This document shows, one piece after another, positions 3,625 through 64,000 of a stretch of DNA of 64,000 bases. The notes beneath the pieces were generated by a model. That model did not search any database. It saw nothing but the letters and a program-made list of their open reading frames with translations, and was not told the DNA's origin. A program made the translations under genes and the position numbers. Each line of letters starts with the position of its first letter. The stretch's first letter is position 1. Source of the DNA: Eledone cirrhosa (Eukaryota); assembly GCA_964016885.1 (NCBI GenBank), contig OZ024754.1, positions 39,184,001 through 39,248,000 of the forward strand, in the 5' to 3' direction.

Positions 3625-4362
3625 ACCCAGTACACTCTGTAAAGTGGTAATCCCATGATAAAATGTATTTTGTACACTCTGTAAAGTGGTAGTGTCATGA
3701 TAAAATGTATTTTGTACACCTTGTAAAGTGGTAGTGACATGATAAAATGTATTTTGTACACTCTGTAAAGTGGTAGGGTCATGATAAAATGTATTTTGTA
3801 CACTGTAAAGTGGTAGTGTCATATTAAAATGTATTTTGTACACTCTGTAAAGTGGTAGTGCTATGATAAAATGTAGCCAGTACACTCTGAAAAGTGGTAC
3901 TGCTGGTTATAAGAAAAATACACCTTCAGCACACTCTGTTTATTTGGTAGAGTTGGTGCCATGAAAAAACATACCCAGTACACTCTGTAAAATGGTAGTT
4001 TGTGCTATGAAAAAAACACACCCATAGAGTTGGTGTTACGAAAAAATATACCCCTACTACACTCTGTTTATGTGGTAGTCTGGTGCCATGAAAAAAACAC
4101 ACCCAGTACGCTCTGCAAAGTGGTAGTGCTTGTGTCACAAAAAACACACCCAGTACGCTCAGCAAAGTGGTATTGCTTGTGTCACAAAAATACACCCTGT
4201 ACGCTCTGCAAAGTGGTATTGGTTGTGTCACAAAACACACCCAGTACGCTCTGCAAAGTGGTAGTGGTTGTGTCACAAAACACACCCAGTACGCTCTGCA
4301 AAGTGGTAGTGGTTGTGTCACAAAACACACCCAGTACCCTCTGCAAAGTGATGGTGCTGGTA
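3625..4362 (+). repeat. 42-46-bp diverged tandem repeat of the TACACTCTGTAAAGTGGT module
   Basis: The unit drifts along the array. Related arrays lie at ~14655-15012 (-) and 20110-20520. Confidence 0.85.
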
Positions 4363-7170: not shown

Positions 7171-7433
7171 AGCATGGCGTCCGACCCTCTACCGATACTG
7201 CCAATCCACCACCCTAGCATGGCGTCCGACCCTCTATCGATACTGCCAATCCACCACCCTAGCATGGCGTCCGACCCTCCACCGATACTGCCAATCCACC
7301 ACCCTAGCATGGCGTCCGACCCTCCACCGATACTGCCAATCCACCACCCTAGCATGGCATCCGACCCTCCACCGATACTGCCAATCCACCACCCTAGCAT
7401 GGCGTCCGACCCTCCACCGATACTGCCAATCCA
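7171..7433 (-). repeat. 45-bp tandem repeat (6 copies) of the SINE B head
   Basis: AGCATGGCGTCCGACCCTCCACCGATACTGCCAATCCACCACCCT starting at 7171, 7216, 7261, 7306, 7351 and 7396. Confidence 0.92.
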
Positions 7434-11649: not shown

Positions 11650-13757
11650 TGGTTAAGTCCTAGAAATACCTGTGTTATGGTGGTTAAGTCCCTAGAAACA
11701 CCTGTGTTATGGTGGTTAAGTCCCTAGAAATACCTGTGTTATGGTGGTTAAGTCCTAGAAATACCTGTGTTATGGTGGTTAAGTCCTAGAAATACCTGTG
11801 TTATGGTGGTTAAGTCCCTAGAAATACCTGTTATGGTGGTTAAGTCCTAGAAATACCTGTGTTATGGTGGTTAAGTCCCTAGAAACACCTGTGTTATGGT
11901 GGTTAAGTCCCTAGAAATACCTGTGTTATGGTGGTTAAGTCCTAGAAATACCTGTGTTATGGTGGTTAAGTCCTAGAAATACCTGTGTTATGGTGGTTAA
12001 GTCCTAGAAATACCTGTTATGGTGGTTAAGTCCCTAGAAATACCTGTTATGGTGGTTAAGTCCCTAGAAATACCTGTGTTATGGTGGTTAAGTCCCTAGA
12101 AATACCTGTGTTATGGTGGTTAAGTCCTAGAAATACCTGTGTTATGGTGGTTAAGTCCCTAGAAATACCTGTTATGGTGGTTAAGTCCTAGAAATACCTG
12201 TGTTATGGTGGTTAAGTCCCTAGAAATACCTGTGTTATGGTGGTTAAGTCCTAGAAATACCTGTTATGGTGGTTAAGTCCCTAGAAATACCTGTGTTATG
12301 GTGGTTAAGTCAATAGAAATACCTGTGTTATGGTGGTTAAGTCAATAGAAACACCTGTGTTATGGTGGTTAAGTCCCTAGAAATACCTGTGTTATGGTGG
12401 TTAAGTCCCTAGAAATACCTGTGTTATGGTGGTTAAGTCCCTAGAAATACCTGTGTTATGGTGGTTAAGTCCTAGAAATACCTGTTATGGTGGTTAAGTC
12501 CCTAGAAATGCCTGTGTTATGGTGGTTAAGTCCCTAGAAACACCTGTGTTATGGTGGTTAAGTCCTAGAAATACCTGTGTTATGGTGGTTAAGTCCCTAG
12601 AAATACCTGTGTTATGGTGGTTAAGTCCTAGAAATACCTGTGTTATGGTGGTTAAGTCCCTAGAAATACCTGTGTTATGGTGGTTAAGTCCCTAGAAATA
12701 CCTGTGTTATGGTGGTTAAGTCCTAAAAATACCTGTGTTATGGTGGTTAAGTCCTAGAAATACCTGTGTTATGGTGGTTAAGTCCCTAGAAATACCTGTG
12801 TTATGGTGGTTAAGTCCCTAGAAATACCTGTGTTATGGTGGTTAAGTCCCTAGAAATACCTGTGTTATGGTGGTTAAGTCCCTAGAAATACCTGTGTTAT
12901 GGTGGTTAAGTCCTAAAAATACCTGTGTTATGGTGGTTAAGTCCCTAGAAATACCTGTGTTATGGTGGTTAAGTCCCTAGAAATACCTGTGTTATGGTGG
13001 TTAAGTCCCTAGAAATACCTGTGTTATGGTGGTTAAGTCCCTAGAAATACCTGTGTTATGGTGGTTAAGTCCCTAGAAATACCTGTGTTATGGTGGTTAA
13101 GTCCTAGAAATACCTGTGTTATGGTGGTTAAGTCCTAGAAATACCTGTGTTATGGTGGTATAGTCCTAGAAATACCTGTGTTATGGTGGTATAGTCTTAG
13201 AAATACCTGTGTTATGGTGGTATAGTCCTAGAAACACCTGTGTTATGGTGGTTAAGTCCTAGAAACACCTGTGTTATGGTGGTTAAGTCCCTAGAAACAC
13301 CTGTGTTATGGTGGTATAGTCCTAGAAACACCTGTGTTATGGTGGTATAGTCCTAGAAACACCTGTGTTATGGTGGTATAGTCCTAGAAACACCTGTGTT
13401 ATGGTGGTTAAGTCCTAGAAACACCTGTGTTATGGTGGTTAAGTCCCTAGAAACACCTGTGTTATGGTGGTATAGTCCTAGAAACACCTGTGTTATGGTG
13501 GTTAAGTCCTAGAAACACCTGTGTTATGGTGGTATAGTCCTAGAAATACCTGTGTTATGGTGGTATAGTCCTAGAAATACCTGTGTTATGGTGGTATAGT
13601 CCTAGAAACACTGTTATGGTGGTTAAGTCCTAGAAACACCTGTGTTATGGTTGTATAGTCTTAGAAACACTTGTGCTATGGTGGTTAAGTCCTAGAAATA
13701 CCTGTGTTATGGTGGTGTAGTTTTAGAAATACCTGTGTTATGGTGGTTTAGTCCAAG
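11650..13757. repeat. 29-32-bp minisatellite, roughly 65 copies
   Basis: Unit TGTGTTATGGTGGTTAAGTCC(C)TAGAAATACC. Confidence 0.95.
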
Positions 13758-15416
13758 ACACACCTTCAAAGTAATGCCCCAGTATGGCCAGAGTCTAATG
13801 AGTAAAATCAATAAAATAATATATATTTTCAGTATGTTTTTCACATGAATATTATCTAGAACAAGAATGCAAAGATTTGTGGTTGGGTATATTTTTTTTC
13901 AGATCTGATTTTAATTATAGAGGCTGCACAAAGCCAATTAATTATACACTTTAAATTAATTTATAATGGTAAAAAAGCTATGTATTTTTAGAATGAACCA
14001 TAAAAAACATATCTACGAGTCTGGATGTTTTGTTGGAAATCTTTTCCAAGCCACCACCGAGACAAAACTGGTTTGATTTAGTCGAGCAAGAAAAATGTTC
14101 ACTTTAGCTATATTTGTACACAACAATAAATAATACAAGTTAGAGAGACAGAGAGAGAGACATAGTATTTTTTTTAAGAGCTTATATTTGAAATCAATAT
14201 AGAGGGACCAAGAAATCTATGTTTGCCAAGTAACCATTGATTAACAAATCGGGTTATCTGGAGAACATAACAATAAATAGCGTGTTGTTTGTAATTATAC
14301 AGTTCTGAAAGAAAGGAAACAAAAAATCCTTCTTCTCAGATGTGACAATTAGTTGTGATAATGTGACCATTATTATTGCATATACTGGAAAGTGATTAAT
14401 GTTAGGAAGGGCATCCAATCATATCAACCCCAGTACTTATTTTTTTCATGTACTGGTACATATTTTATCGATTTCTTTTTGTCAAGCTGCACACGCACAC
14501 ACAAGAATGTGTTTAAAATAGCGAATAAGGAAAATGAATAGGACAGCAAGGGCCTATGCCATGCAGACAAGTTAGGTCAATTGACCGTGTCCTGCTTACA
14601 CAGAACTGTTTCTGGCATGGTTTCTACGACTGGATGCTCTTCCTAACGCCAACCACATTTACAGTGTAGTCTGGCCGCTTTCTGTCATGTCACCAACATG
14701 ACCCCTTTACAGTGTGGTCTGGGCGCTTTCTGTCATGGTACCAACATGACCACTTTATAGTGTGGTCTGGGCGCTTTCTGTCATGGCACCAACATGACCA
14801 CTTCACAGTGTGGGTTGGATGCTTTTTGTCATGACACCTACAGAACCAACAAACAGTGTGGATTGGGCATGTTTTGTTATGTCACCAACATGACTACTTT
14901 ACAGTGTGGACTGAGCGTTTTTTGATATGTCATCAATACAACTACTTTACAGTGTAGACTGGGCGTTTTTTGTCATGTCACCAACATGACTATTTTACAG
15001 TGTGATCTGGGCCTATTAAATACAATCTAGTGTGGAAGAAAAGGTCAGTTGAGACTAAAAAATAATTATAAATTTAGGCACAAGGCCAGCAATTTTGGTG
15101 CAGCGGGCGAGGGGTTGTCTATTATATCGACCCAGTATTTGAATGGTTCTTTATCTTATCCCCCCCCCCCCACCTGAATGAATGAAAAGCAAATATGACC
15201 TTGGTCAGATTTAAACTCGGTTCAAACAAAACAATGAGCAGTGCATTGACATTGTTTATCTATTGTAGCAATAGTAATAATGGCTAGCTTTGTTTTAGGC
15301 ACAGTAGTAGATGATCAAAGGCCAAGAGGCCTCCATATGGCTGCACCAGCCCATCCCACCCTTCCACTTCTCACAAATATGCAGATAAGAGAACAGCTTT
15401 GATAGTTTCAGTTTAA

Positions 15417-18921: not shown

Positions 18922-20109
18922 ACTTGCACACACGGTCTCAGACACACTCGCATATACACACACACACTTGCATATACAAACACACACACCACTTCTCTCT
19001 CTCCCCATATCCCTCAATATTGCTGTCCCCCATCTCTCTCTTTATCCCTCACTATTGCTGCCCCCCCCTCTCTCTCTCCTTATTCCTCACTATTGCTGCC
19101 CCCCTCTCTCTCCTTATTCCTCACTATTGCTGTCCCTATCTCCCTCTCATTAACAGGTCTCTACATAAATATTTTGCTACCCTCCTCTCTTTCCCTACTT
19201 TTTCTTCATCCATCTTTCTTTATCTCTGCCCCTCTCCTTCTATCTACAGCCCCCCCCCCGTTCCCTTCCGATTTCTCCCCCCCCCCTCTCTCCCTGGTCT
19301 CCTTCTCTCTCCCTCCTCCTTTCTCCTCTCCGTATGCTCTTCACCTGATACTAAGCTACTTCTCAATATCCCAATTATTTGTTGTCCAGAAGTTCGTTAG
19401 ATATTAACGAACTGTTTTGAAACATATCCGTTATAATACATCTGCTGGCCATTAGGCCACATTTATTGCCTTGGCTTCTATCAACTGTGGCCTTGCTAAT
19501 TATATATGATTTATGGAGGGCTTATAAATAATACATGTTCTGTCCATGATGTATTTACAGCTAATATGATTTAGGTAGGGCTTACAGGTGTGTGTGATAT
19601 ATTTAGAGGCAACACGATTCATGTAGGTCTTATAGGCATATATGTGTGTGTGTGTGTGTGTGTGTGTCATCTAGAAACGATCGTAAAGCAGTGAAGTATA
19701 TCTCTAATGACTTTATATATATCTATATATAGATATATATATATGAAAAGATTCAGGACCCCCGATGGCTGAGCTCTGGCTGTTTCGAAAGCTAAATCCG
19801 AAACTTTTCATACTACCTACTCTACTACCCGAAGTATCGAGTACTCTGGTGGATTATGGTCTAGCTGGTTTTTACCACACCCTATCTGATATATATATCA
19901 GAGGTAGACCACGAAAAACATGGGTGAAGGTGGTGAGAGCAGACCTCAGATCGCTGAAGCTCACAGTGGAGATGACGAAGGACCGTGATAAGTGGAGAGA
20001 TGCTGTGCTGAATAGGACCCGTCCCACCCTTGCAAGCAGGGAAAAGCGGACGTAAAATGATGATGATATATATATATAGTGGTCATTTTGGTGCCATGAC
20101 AAAAAGCTC

Positions 20110-20520
20110 CCAGTCCACACTGTAACGCTGTCATGTAGGTGTCACAACAAAAAGCGCCCAGGTCCACACTGTAAATTGGTCGTGCTGGTTTCACCACAAA
20201 AAGCGCCCAGGTCCACACTGTAAATTGGTCGTGCTGGTGTCACCACAAAAAGCGCCCAGGTCCACACTGTAAATTGGTCGTGCTGGTGTCACCACAAAAA
20301 GCGCCCAGGTCCACACTGTAAATTGGTCGTGCTGGTGTCACCACAAAAAGCGCCCAGGTCCACACTGTAAATTGGTCGTGCTGGTGTCACCACAAAAAGC
20401 GCTCAGGCCCACACTGTAAATCGGTCGTGCTGGTGTCACCACAAAAAGCGCCCACTCCACACTGTAAGGTGGTCGTGTTGGTGTTATGACAAAAGGCACT
20501 CAGCCCACCCTGTAAATGTG
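20110..20520 (+). repeat. 49-bp tandem repeat of the CACACTGTAAA module
   Basis: Unit CCCAGGTCCACACTGTAAATTGGTCGTGCTGGTGTCACCACAAAAAGCG. Confidence 0.9.
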
Positions 20521-30462: not shown

Positions 30463-30630
30463 GAATTTTACAAAGAACCATTTTATGAATCTTTTGAAGC
30501 TACCCCATTACTGGCTGCCATCTTAACCTACCTTAGTTACAGCTTGTTAACAATCGTAGGTCACATTCGAGAATGGCTACAAATGGCCGGATTGCAGAAG
30601 TCCCACATGCTCAAGGAACCAAAACAAGAC
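30463..30630 (+). CDS. SPTLC2: Serine palmitoyltransferase catalytic subunit, first coding exon seen (168 bp, phase 0/0)
   Basis: Polypyrimidine tract and AG at 30461-62; encodes EFYKEPFYESFEATPLLAAILTYLSY...EPKQD; GTAAGT donor at 30631. Resembles the LCB2 N-terminal FxExFExTP region. Confidence 0.9.
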
Positions 30631-42502: not shown

Positions 42503-42657
42503 GATTTTGTTCCCCTCTATCAAAGCTGGGAAAGTTTCTACACTAGAAACCTGTATCGAAGAATAAGTGATTGTTGGAATCGTCCAGTTTGTACGGCTCC
42601 AGGAGCAGAAATAGATGTCTTAGAACGGGTATCTCCAGACTTTGGTTGGAACTGGAA
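42503..42657 (+). CDS. SPTLC2: SPTLC2-like coding exon (155 bp, phase 0/2)
   Basis: tttttAG acceptor; encodes [51 protein letters not shown]; GTAAGC donor. FYTRNLY..I.D.WNRP is a conserved LCB2 motif. Confidence 0.95.
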
Positions 42658-50110: not shown

Positions 50111-50256
50111 TTTGACCGGGAAGAAGAAAAGAGTGATGAATTTTGGTTCCTATAACTATCTTGGGTTTGGTCAAAACTACGGCCAGTGTACTGATGATGT
50201 CCAAGCCATCATAGAATCTCACGGAGTTGGTTCTTGTGCCAGTCGTCATGGCTTAG
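50111..50256 (+). CDS. SPTLC2: SPTLC2-like coding exon (146 bp, phase 2/1)
   Basis: ttctAG acceptor; encodes LTGKKKRVMNFGSYNYLGFGQNYG...VGSCASRHGL; GTAAAT donor. Contains the GSYNYLGF motif. Confidence 0.95.
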
Positions 50257-53727: not shown

Positions 53728-53852
53728 GTTTACTCGATATCCACATGGAACTGGATCAAACTGTAGCAGACTTTTTGGGAGTGGAAGCAGCCATTACTTT
53801 TCCAATGGGTTTTGCTACGAATTCTATGAACATACCTTGTCTTGTTACTAAG
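53728..53852 (+). CDS. SPTLC2: SPTLC2-like coding exon (125 bp, phase 1/0)
   Basis: tcttcAG acceptor; encodes [41 protein letters not shown]; GTGGGT donor. Contains the MGFATNS motif. Confidence 0.95.
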
Positions 53853-59284: not shown

Positions 59285-59378
59285 GGTTGTTTGATAATCA
59301 GTGATGAACTCAACCACGCTTCCTTGGTTCTTGGTTCACGGCTGACTGGAGCTACCATCCGTGTCTTTAAACATAACA
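59285..59378 (+). CDS. SPTLC2: SPTLC2-like coding exon (94 bp, phase 0/1)
   Basis: tttcAG acceptor; encodes [31 protein letters not shown]; GTAAGT donor. Contains the SDELNHAS and FKHN motifs. Missed by the ORF track. Confidence 0.95.
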
Positions 59379-61165: not shown

Positions 61166-61678
61166 TGGTTCTCTCTGTACTTTGAGTTCAGATCTCACTT
61201 AGGTTAACTTTGTCTTTCTTCCTTTCAAGGTCAATAAAATACCAGTTCAATACTAGGGTCAATTCTTCCTCTCTGTCTTACTCTCTTTCTCAACAAGTCA
61301 TCAACTATGTTCAGACCTGGACTCCACCTTGTTTAAATACTAAAGTATGTTACTACAGCACCCTTATGACTTGATTAGATGTTAAGGTAGTAAGCTGATA
61401 GTGCTGGGAGTCACGATAAAATGCACCCAGTACACCCTGTAAAGTGGTTGTCATTTTATGATAGAAAGGCACCCAACTGTAGAAACAGAGTCAGAAGTGT
61501 AGCGTACATGTAACATGTGGTCACCCAACCAGTTCAGTCTCAGTGTATAGCAACCTGTCTAACCCGTACCCACATGGGAAAGAGATATTAAACAGTGATG
61601 ATGATGATGATAACGAAACAAAGTTTAACTTTGTTTGTTTCTCAGTGAAATGTCTAATATACTGTGTTTATTTTACAG

Positions 61679-61784
61679 ATATGGTATCGTTAGAAAAAAT
61701 CTTGAAGCAAGCTGTGGTCGAGGGGCAGCCTAGAACACATCAGCCATGGAAAAAAATCCTCGTTGTCTGTGAGGGTATTTACAG
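61679..61784 (+). CDS. SPTLC2: SPTLC2-like coding exon (106 bp, phase 1/2)
   Basis: ttttacAG acceptor; encodes [34 protein letters not shown](S); GTAAAC donor at 61785. Confidence 0.95.
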
Positions 61785-62008
61785 GTAAACAAATCAATAA
61801 ATATTGTCTGTGAGAGTATTTACAGGTAAATAAATCAATAAATATTGTCTGTGAGGGTATTTACAGGTAAACAAATCAATAAATATTGTCTGTGAGAGTA
61901 TTTACAGGTAAATAAAACAATAAATATTGTCTGTGAGGGTATTTGCAGGTAAATAAATCAATAAATATTGTCTGTGAGGGTATTTACAGGTAAATAAAAC
62001 AATAAATA
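61763..62008 (+). repeat. 41-bp tandem repeat (6 copies) spanning an exon end and splice donor
   Basis: Unit TTGTCTGTGAGGGTATTTACAG|GTAAACAAATCAATAAATA. Confidence 0.95.
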
Positions 62009-62381
62009 TACTGAAATAGTGTCTGAAGGTATAAACGCACACATACACACACACACACACAGAAACAATATACACTTCAACATACACACACATGCTCATA
62101 TACACATTAACATACTAACACATACACAATATACTCACACACACACTACATGCTCACACAATACATACACAATACACTCACTCATACTCACACACACACA
62201 TATTCACTCATACAATACATACACATGCACAATACTCACACACACACACACACATATACACAGAATGAAAGTTGTTTTAGAAGATATCTCATCCATGTAA
62301 AAATGCAGAAATGAATATTTTTTAACAAAAATTTCTAAAGTAAAAAATAAAAATTTATTTCTCCCTTTTTATCTGTTTTAG

Positions 62382-62601
62382 TATGGAAGGCTCCATCTGT
62401 CGACTTCCCGAAATTGTCCACTTAAAGAAAAAGTACAAGGCTTATTTGTATCTTGATGAAGCTCACAGTATTGGTGCCATTGGAGACAGTGGTAGAGGGG
62501 TCTGTGAATATTTTGGAGTTGATCCAAATGACGTTGATATTATGATGGGAACATTTACTAAAAGCTTTGCTTCAGCTGGTGGATATATTGGTGGATCAAA
62601 G
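62382..62601 (+). CDS. SPTLC2: SPTLC2-like coding exon with the PLP-binding lysine (220 bp, phase 2/0)
   Basis: ttttAG acceptor; encodes [12 protein letters not shown]...[10 protein letters not shown]...[22 protein letters not shown]; Lys codon at 62560-62562; GTAATA donor at 62602. The catalytic Lys distinguishes SPTLC2/3 from SPTLC1. Confidence 0.97.
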
Positions 62602-63759
62602 GTAATAAAGCAATCTTAGGTTTTTATATTTCCAAATGGGATATATTGGTGGATCAAAGGTAATAAAGCAATCTTAGGTTTTTATATTTCCAAATGGGAT
62701 ATATTGGTGGATCAAAGGTAATGAGACAATCTTAGGTTTTATATTTCCAAATGGGATATATTGGTGGATCAAAGGTAATAAAGCAATCTTAGGTTTTTAT
62801 ATTTCCAAATGGGATATATTGGTGGATCAAAGGTAATAAAGCAATCTTAGGTTTTTATATTTCCAAATGGGATATATTGGTGGATCAAAGGTAATAAAGC
62901 AATCTTAGGTTTTTATATTTCCAAATGGGATATATTGGTGGATCAAAGGTAATGAGACAATCTTAGGTTTTATATTTCCAAATGGGATATATTGGTGGAT
63001 CAAAGGTAATAAAGCAATCTTAGGTTTTTATATTTCCAAATGGGATATATTGGTGGATCAAAGGTAATAAAGCAATCTTAGGTTTTTATATTTCCAAATG
63101 GGATATATTGGTGGATCAAAGGTAATAAAGCAATCTTAGGTTTTTATATTTCCAAATGGGATATATTGGTGGATCAAAGGTAATGAGACAATCTTAGGTT
63201 TTATATTTCCAAATGGGATATATTGGTGGATCAAAGGTAATAAAGCAATCTTAGGTTTTTATATTTCCAAATGGGATATATTGGTGGATCAAAGGTAATA
63301 AAGCAATCTTAGGTTTTTATATTTCCAAATGGGATATATTGGTGGATCAAAGGTAATAAAGCAATCTTAGGTTTTTATATTTCCAAATGGGATATATTGG
63401 TGGATCAAAGGTAATGAGACAATCTTAGGTTTTATATTTCCAAATGGGATATATTGGTGGATCAAAGGTAATAAAGCAATCTTAGGTTTTTATATTTCCA
63501 AATGGGATATATTGGTGGATCAAAGGTAATAAAGCAATCTTAGGTTTTTATATTTCCAAATGGGATATATTGGTGGATCAAAGGTAATAAAGCAATCTTA
63601 GGTTTTTATATTTCCAAATGAGATATATTGGTGGATCAAAGGTAATGAGACAATCTTAGGTTTTATATTTCCAAATGGGATATATCTCTGGATCAAAGGT
63701 AATGAGACAGTCTTAGGTTTTATATTTCCAAATGGGATATATCTGTGGATCAAAGGTAA
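62581..63759 (+). repeat. 57/58-bp tandem repeat (20 full copies plus a partial) spanning an exon end and splice donor
   Basis: Unit GGATATATTGGTGGATCAAAG|GTAATAAAGCAATCTTAGGTTTTTATATTTCCAAATG. Confidence 0.95.
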
Positions 63760-64000
63760 CAAGAAGGTGTGTGGCTTAGTGGTAAGGGTGTTAGACTTAC
63801 AATCATAATGTCATGGGTTTGATTCCTGGACTGAGTTGTGTGTTGTGTTCTTATGCAAAGCATTTCATTTCGCTCCAGTATAGTCAGATTGGTAACATAG
63901 ACATACTGGTGTAGGTACAATAGCCAGTCAGCTTGGTAACATAGACACTGGTGTAGGTACAATAGCCAGTCAGCTTGGTAACATAGACATACTGGTGTAG

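Follow-up and report, generated by a model that had tools for sequence, protein, structure and literature searches.

The window analysed here, by which we mean the whole stretch of 64,000 nucleotides of Eledone cirrhosa DNA, contains on its forward strand a part of a gene that is, judging from sequence similarity, an octopod SPTLC2. Seven exons bounded by AG and GT (table 1), the first starting at position 30463 and the last ending at 62601, join into a frame of 338 codons without a stop, and this frame is 93.5% identical to the Argonauta homologue P0039 over one ungapped block. The last of the seven ends at phase 0 after the residues GGSK and aligns without gaps with residues 320-392 of human SPTLC2 (E = 1.4e-35); by this alignment the lysine of its TFTKSF motif corresponds to human position 379, and we take it to be the PLP lysine of the enzyme. 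The closest named matches of this exon, among the 120 listed of 3899, are from Argonauta, Octopus bimaculoides and O. sinensis (93-95%); neither in these 120 nor in 11 cluster members that were read could a protein of the present species be recognised. The gene had already been named as SPTLC2 in the original prediction, an assignment with which the ungapped human match and the seven-exon frame both agree. The joined frame covers these seven exons, with exon 1 and the exons after 62601 lying outside the window; a tblastn search with the N-terminal 50 residues of two homologues found no match to exon 1 within it. The product of the gene is presumably the rate-limiting enzyme of sphingolipid synthesis. 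As a separate matter, the public SPTLC2 models of two octopuses, O. bimaculoides with 691 aa and O. sinensis with 280 aa, lack an exon matching 50111-50256 (compared in P0040, P0041 and P0121), and P0040 has unrelated sequence where this exon should be (residues 150-350); annotation or assembly errors are the probable cause.

Table 1. Features of the SPTLC2 locus, in positions of the window.
Feature	Position	Strand	Basis or remarks
Five further SPTLC2 exons	30463-30630, 42503-42657, 50111-50256, 53728-53852, 59285-59378	+	
Preceding SPTLC2 exon, 106 nt	61679-61784	+	
Sister ladder, 41 bp x 6	61763-62009	+	unit = 22 nt of exon end + 19 nt of intron start
SPTLC2 coding exon, 220 nt, with the TFTKSF lysine	62382-62601	+	AG/GT bounds, open frame, ungapped human match
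Minisatellite, 20 units of 57-58 bp + 25-nt partial unit	62581-63759	+	TRF, unit splitting at the donor
Authentic donor AAG/GTAATAAA, GT at 62602	62599-62609	+	sole donor keeping the frame stop-free
In-frame TAG that transcripts spliced at donors 2-21 would meet	62617-62619	+	
20 pseudo-donors at steps of 57-58 nt	62660-63759	+	consensus match, U1 duplex
Divergent 3' end of the array, comprising units 19 and 20 and the partial unit 21	63621-63759	+	1, 4 and 2 changes
Dispersed repeat, putatively SINE-like, adjoining the last partial unit	63760-63882	+	

The end of the exon with the lysine is drawn into a minisatellite whose unit consists of the last 21 nt of the exon plus the first 37 nt (type A, 58 bp) or 36 nt (type B, 57 bp) of the intron. 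Unit 1 (62581-62638) spans the exon-intron border and holds the donor at 62602, and the array as a whole presents a ladder of 21 donors of the form AAG/GTAA, with GT at 62602, 62660, 62718, 62775 and so on to 63756. The two unit types, which differ by one T and three substitutions directly after GTAAT, follow each other in the order AABAAABAAABAAABAAABB plus a 25-nt partial unit, that is AAB(AAAB)x4 B plus the partial, and the repetition of AAAB creates a higher-order period of 231 bp. TRF accordingly reports the stretch with a period of 58 (20.4 copies, 96% matches) as well as with a period of 231 (5.1 copies, 98%). The lag-4 periodicity of the unit labels (15/16 match) has a p-value of 0.0006 in 200,000 shuffles, or 0.0013 when any lag from 2 to 7 is allowed. 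The original prediction had described an array with this position, number of donors, unit order and long period, and it is recovered by TRF and by unit splitting alike; the composition of the unit, proposed as 21 nt of exon end and about 37 nt of intron start in types of 58 and 57 bp, is likewise seen when the units are compared.

The array has a homogenised centre and a divergent edge. Units 1-18 fall into two letter-identical classes (14 units of type A, 4 of type B), and units 19-21 carry changes. The identity within the two classes is what might be expected if mis-joined or over-polished reads had produced the array, or else most of the copies and their regular order, but the strictly phased unit types, the changes private to each of the last three units and the distinct flanks would be unlike the outcome of collapse or stutter, and many other arrays in the same window do show internal variation, so an assembly artefact appears extremely improbable. 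The last two units (63678-63759) have ATC-TCT and ATC-TGT in place of the ATT-GGT of the exon and the inner units; if ATC is ancestral, the exon end itself has possibly been homogenised with the array. Right behind the final GTAA begins a dispersed repeat, for which the window holds 11 further matches (66-80% identity), and right after it, at 63882, begins a 42-bp minisatellite. Derivation of the array unit from a dispersed repeat was considered and dismissed, the unit having no match longer than 15 nt elsewhere in the window.

The first donor of the ladder is the authentic one, since the frame is free of stops only there and since the cephalopod homologues continue directly beyond the border: all six that were compared go straight on with DL(I/V)N, with 164 residues left. 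Reading past donor 1 yields V-I-K-Q-S and then a TAG which, lying just behind this donor, would therefore be carried by transcripts spliced at any of the 20 later ones. This premature stop, shared by all downstream choices, had been foreseen in the original prediction and is found as described. It falls 164 codons ahead of the protein end, 40 nt before donor 2 and at least 98 nt before donors 3-21; in NMD, the distance between stop and junction is subject to the 50-nt rule.

With regard to their strength, the A, B and last donor types equal donor 1, each agreeing with the consensus at 7/11 positions, and the array's donor types form U1 duplexes of -6.5 to -6.6 kcal/mol, which is inside the span of the seven real donors of the gene (-4.5 to -11.5). 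By this modelling it is plausible that the later donors are functional sites. RNA structure was rejected as the reason for the choice of donor 1, because the predicted openness (0.097 at donor 1, 0.013-0.076 at the inner donors and 0.179 at the last one) shows small, non-monotonic differences that do not single this donor out.

A second ladder, absent from the finding originally reported, is present on the preceding exon. Its six donors lie at 61785, 61826, 61867, 61908, 61949 and 61990, and reading on from the exon leads at once into an in-frame TAA (61786-61788). Of the five later donors in this ladder, four agree with the consensus at 9/11 positions, compared with 8/11 for the real donor. 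At the five SPTLC2 exons between 30463 and 59378, no repeated donor or acceptor was found.

Several other roles and origins of the main array were considered and set aside. A coding or RNA-family role is rejected because neither strand has a long frame running across the array (the longest frame wholly inside it has 52 aa) and because no Rfam match at E <= 0.1 was found in 61500-64000, the dispersed repeat included. Recursive splicing, or an array of cassette exons, is rejected because the AG before each repeated GT is part of AAG rather than of a YAG acceptor, and because the ten AG sites in units 1-3 have 6-8 pyrimidines among the 20 nt before them, whereas all seven real acceptors of the gene have 13-18. 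Gain of the intron by tandem duplication of an AG/GT proto-splice site is rejected as well, since the intron position appears to predate the array: the O. sinensis-like protein P0122 and three more distant short proteins all depart from homology at the same point, GG.K/V, which would be explained by translated read-through. P0122 itself reads GGSK-VTTQVLNVF and stops 9 residues past the border, a tail that would fit translation continuing into an intron at the position of donor 1. At the protein level this tail bears a loose resemblance to VIKQ and VMRQ, as read from A and B units respectively, which is a hint that the intronic portion of the unit may go back to old intron sequence.

Sequencing runs were also queried with 31 sampled 31-mer words, from a query comprising 299 distinct 31-mers of which 191 are exonic. 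The share of words found was 0.87 in runs X1-X3 and 0.74 in run X4, and small in 16 of the 23 runs listed. The higher figure, 27/31 words, exceeds what is expected of a holder of the exon only (P = 0.004) but not of a holder of the exon plus the upstream intron (P = 0.14), and the lower one, 23/31, fits an exon-only holder (P = 0.16); the shares therefore bear on neither the array nor the use of its donors. The best-matching runs may come from the assembly's own sample.

The arrangement seen in SPTLC2 is of a known kind that was studied in depth in 2006. In a 37-bp VNTR of intron 7 of human F7, a row of identical pseudo-donors stands behind the authentic one and, according to the accessible part of the report, minigenes were spliced only in the normal way, the next donor being used only once the upstream one had been destroyed (Borensztajn et al. 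2006, PMC1557585). As in F7, unit 1 of the SPTLC2 array spans the exon-intron border and the pseudo-donors come after the authentic donor. F7, however, has 5-9 units with 4 exonic bases, as opposed to 21 donors, 21 exonic bases, two unit types and a 231-bp period in SPTLC2; all downstream choices in SPTLC2, unlike those in F7, end in a stop, the host is a mollusc, and it is for F7 that donor choice has been tested in minigenes. The introduction of the same paper lists further human cases, namely CBS intron 13 (15-20 units), IFI6/6-16 intron 2 (25 pseudo-sites), LMNB2 (10-15 x 100 bp) and PDGF intron 4 (16-18 x 81 bp), in the first two of which splicing also reaches the two nearest pseudo-sites, whereas in LMNB2 and PDGF it is confined to the first donor (PMC1557585). 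As far as these entries go, the numbers of repeated donors are similar to or above that of SPTLC2, and the unit sizes bracket 58 bp. The SPTLC2 array shares three structural features with border-spanning minisatellites of the F7/CBS type and of the amphioxus type described below: its unit 1 lies across the border, 20 further intact AAG/GTAA sites follow, and the inner units are homogenised while those at the edge diverge.

We thus consider it quite probable that the array is a tolerated intronic minisatellite whose unit 1 lies over the SPTLC2 exon-intron border, with the first donor used almost always and the other 20 silent or nearly so. Beneath this reading lie the array itself, its higher-order organisation, the intact frame via donor 1, the equal donor types and the stop, all of which are observed. 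The 58-bp border segment would have been duplicated locally in tandem, the B variant would have arisen, and the four-unit block AAAB would then have been amplified, while the 3' edge, cut off by the dispersed repeat, escaped homogenisation and eroded. The most upstream functional donor would be picked by 5'-to-3' scanning or by exon definition, by analogy with F7. Seen in this light, the choice of the first donor, one of the two alternatives in the original prediction, is likely the expected behaviour of such an array rather than a surprise. A leak of a few per cent to donor 2 or 3, such as CBS, IFI6 and ABCA7 show, would produce a stop-containing RNA without the last 164 codons, and this RNA would be waste, not regulation. 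Two points sit less easily with a tolerated repeat: the scanning rule has been shown in mammalian cells only, and most later donors of the sister ladder are slightly better than the real one.

A different view of the same stop, corresponding to the other alternative in the original prediction, is that it makes the ladder a rheostat, in which more units mean more splicing at downstream donors, each of which adds the TAG, and NMD lowers functional SPTLC2 as the array lengthens. The equality of the downstream donor types with donor 1 is in keeping with this idea, as are the loss of the same 164 codons with every downstream donor, the distance of the stop from donors 3-21 and the fact that both ladders, on consecutive exons, end in stops; moreover, a review tabulates the 31-bp VNTR of CBS, in the part accessible to us, as linked to lower activity (PMC1395315). 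F7, on the other hand, shows no competition even from stronger pseudo-sites (PMC1557585), one-unit retention in ABCA7 is independent of repeat length (PMC5954066), both again according to the accessible parts of these papers, and a stop within a few codons would be normal on reading into an AT-rich intron, where P0122 stops early too. A length-tuned NMD effect at the array is accordingly unlikely, and we accord the rheostat as a whole only a slender chance. If it were true that donor use scales with array length, the ladder would constitute a new regulatory device for sphingolipid synthesis.

ABCA7 deserves separate consideration. The 25-bp VNTR in intron 18 of this human gene shows one-unit retention of about 2%, and its length alters the skipping of exon 19 as well as total expression, judging from the accessible part of the study (De Roeck et al. 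2018, PMC5954066). As in SPTLC2, the repeat contains the donor of the exon. Use of the second ABCA7 donor shifts the frame and brings in a premature stop that exposes the RNA to NMD, an outcome similar to the one predicted for SPTLC2. The ABCA7 unit, by contrast, starts at the GT without any exon sequence, where that of SPTLC2 holds 21 exonic nt; the alleles reach several kb; and length drives the skipping of the next exon, not the use of the repeated donors. That repeat length has such consequences at all counts to some extent against a merely tolerated array in SPTLC2 and raises the thought of an indirect effect, with the donors silent and the array binding U1 or other RNA-binding proteins so as to alter the splicing of this or the next exon. 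The 3.2-fold rise in exon 19 skipping from the shortest to the longest ABCA7 genotypes (PMC5954066) and the 20 extra U1-matching sites within 1.2 kb speak for it; the effect in ABCA7, however, came with multi-kilobase expansions, compared with 1.2 kb in SPTLC2, and we find an indirect effect here just as doubtful as the rheostat.

Invertebrate parallels exist in amphioxus, where 'mirage' minisatellites are known from Adh3, troponin C, the globins BflGb6 and BflGb9, and PGBD5; in the accessible parts of the sources, splicing is reported as undisturbed, and the arrays have homogenised centres and excluded edges (PMC3087553, PMC3902484). The SPTLC2 locus resembles the mirages in consisting of tandem copies of an exon-intron border, in having more than one array per gene (as in PGBD5) and in combining a homogenised centre with a divergent edge. 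The mirages, however, include acceptor-side arrays and a documented instability of length, whereas the border arrays seen in the window are all on the donor side, in one assembly. Among the part of the literature matches that was listed, we found no cephalopod case of a donor-repeating minisatellite. A Cell paper of 2023 is said to deal with human VNTRs at splice sites. Two further papers have no bearing on the donor-ladder claim, the accessible text of one treating motifs up to 20 bp only (PMC10078293) and that of the other making no mention of minisatellites (PMC10700109). What is particular to the SPTLC2 locus is the clean higher-order organisation together with two ladders on consecutive exons. 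As a tolerated repeat, the array in itself matters little. It nevertheless adds a mollusc to a pattern known in humans and lancelets, and two ladders on consecutive exons, one with slightly better later donors, offer a natural substrate for asking whether the mammalian first-donor rule holds in a cephalopod. Arrays that repeat donors can, in addition, lead gene annotation and the mapping of reads astray.

The occurrence of two ladders in one gene has to be judged against the repeat load of the window, which contains 21 non-redundant minisatellites making up 16.9% of its bases (TRF coverage is 33%), so that arrays evidently form readily here. From this density, 0.084 donor-spanning arrays are expected among seven donors, and two are seen (P = 0.003); the window, however, was chosen for one ladder, and the probability of a second is 0.06, or 0.13 if acceptors are counted too. 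These adjusted values leave room for a local bias, which weighs somewhat against a simply tolerated minisatellite, as does the order of the AAAB blocks, which is cleaner than that of neighbouring arrays, given that only one of the five other long arrays tested for periodicity was periodic, and weakly so (p = 0.003). It may be envisaged that minisatellites of this lineage are born preferentially at donors, with seeding linked to transcription or splicing at exon ends and ladders enriched throughout the genome. Arrays overlap 2/7 donors but 0/7 acceptors, the units of both ladders begin 21-22 nt inside the exon, and amphioxus genes are reported, in the accessible parts of the sources, to have several mirages each (PMC3087553, PMC3902484). 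Against this stand the adjusted P values and the restriction to one gene; in addition, 0.6 kb separates the two ladders, which lie in a 3.4-kb stretch holding five arrays, so that a local hot spot explains them equally well. We hold such a birthplace effect to be very improbable. Scarcely more credible is the most far-reaching proposal, that the two ladders, with 21 and 6 donors and both ended by stops, form a length-coded NMD dial on enzyme dose, and that cephalopod genomes build donor ladders above chance as a genome-wide layer of splicing control.

The weakly periodic array just mentioned (11650-13765) has a unit of 31-32 bp in about 67 copies and a periodicity of six units. Four other minisatellites (4094-4350, 7171-7433, 14652-15012 and 20099-20517) consist of units with 6-15 matches each to dispersed repeats in other parts of the window, and since this applies to 4 of the 21, arrays also form inside copies of mobile elements.
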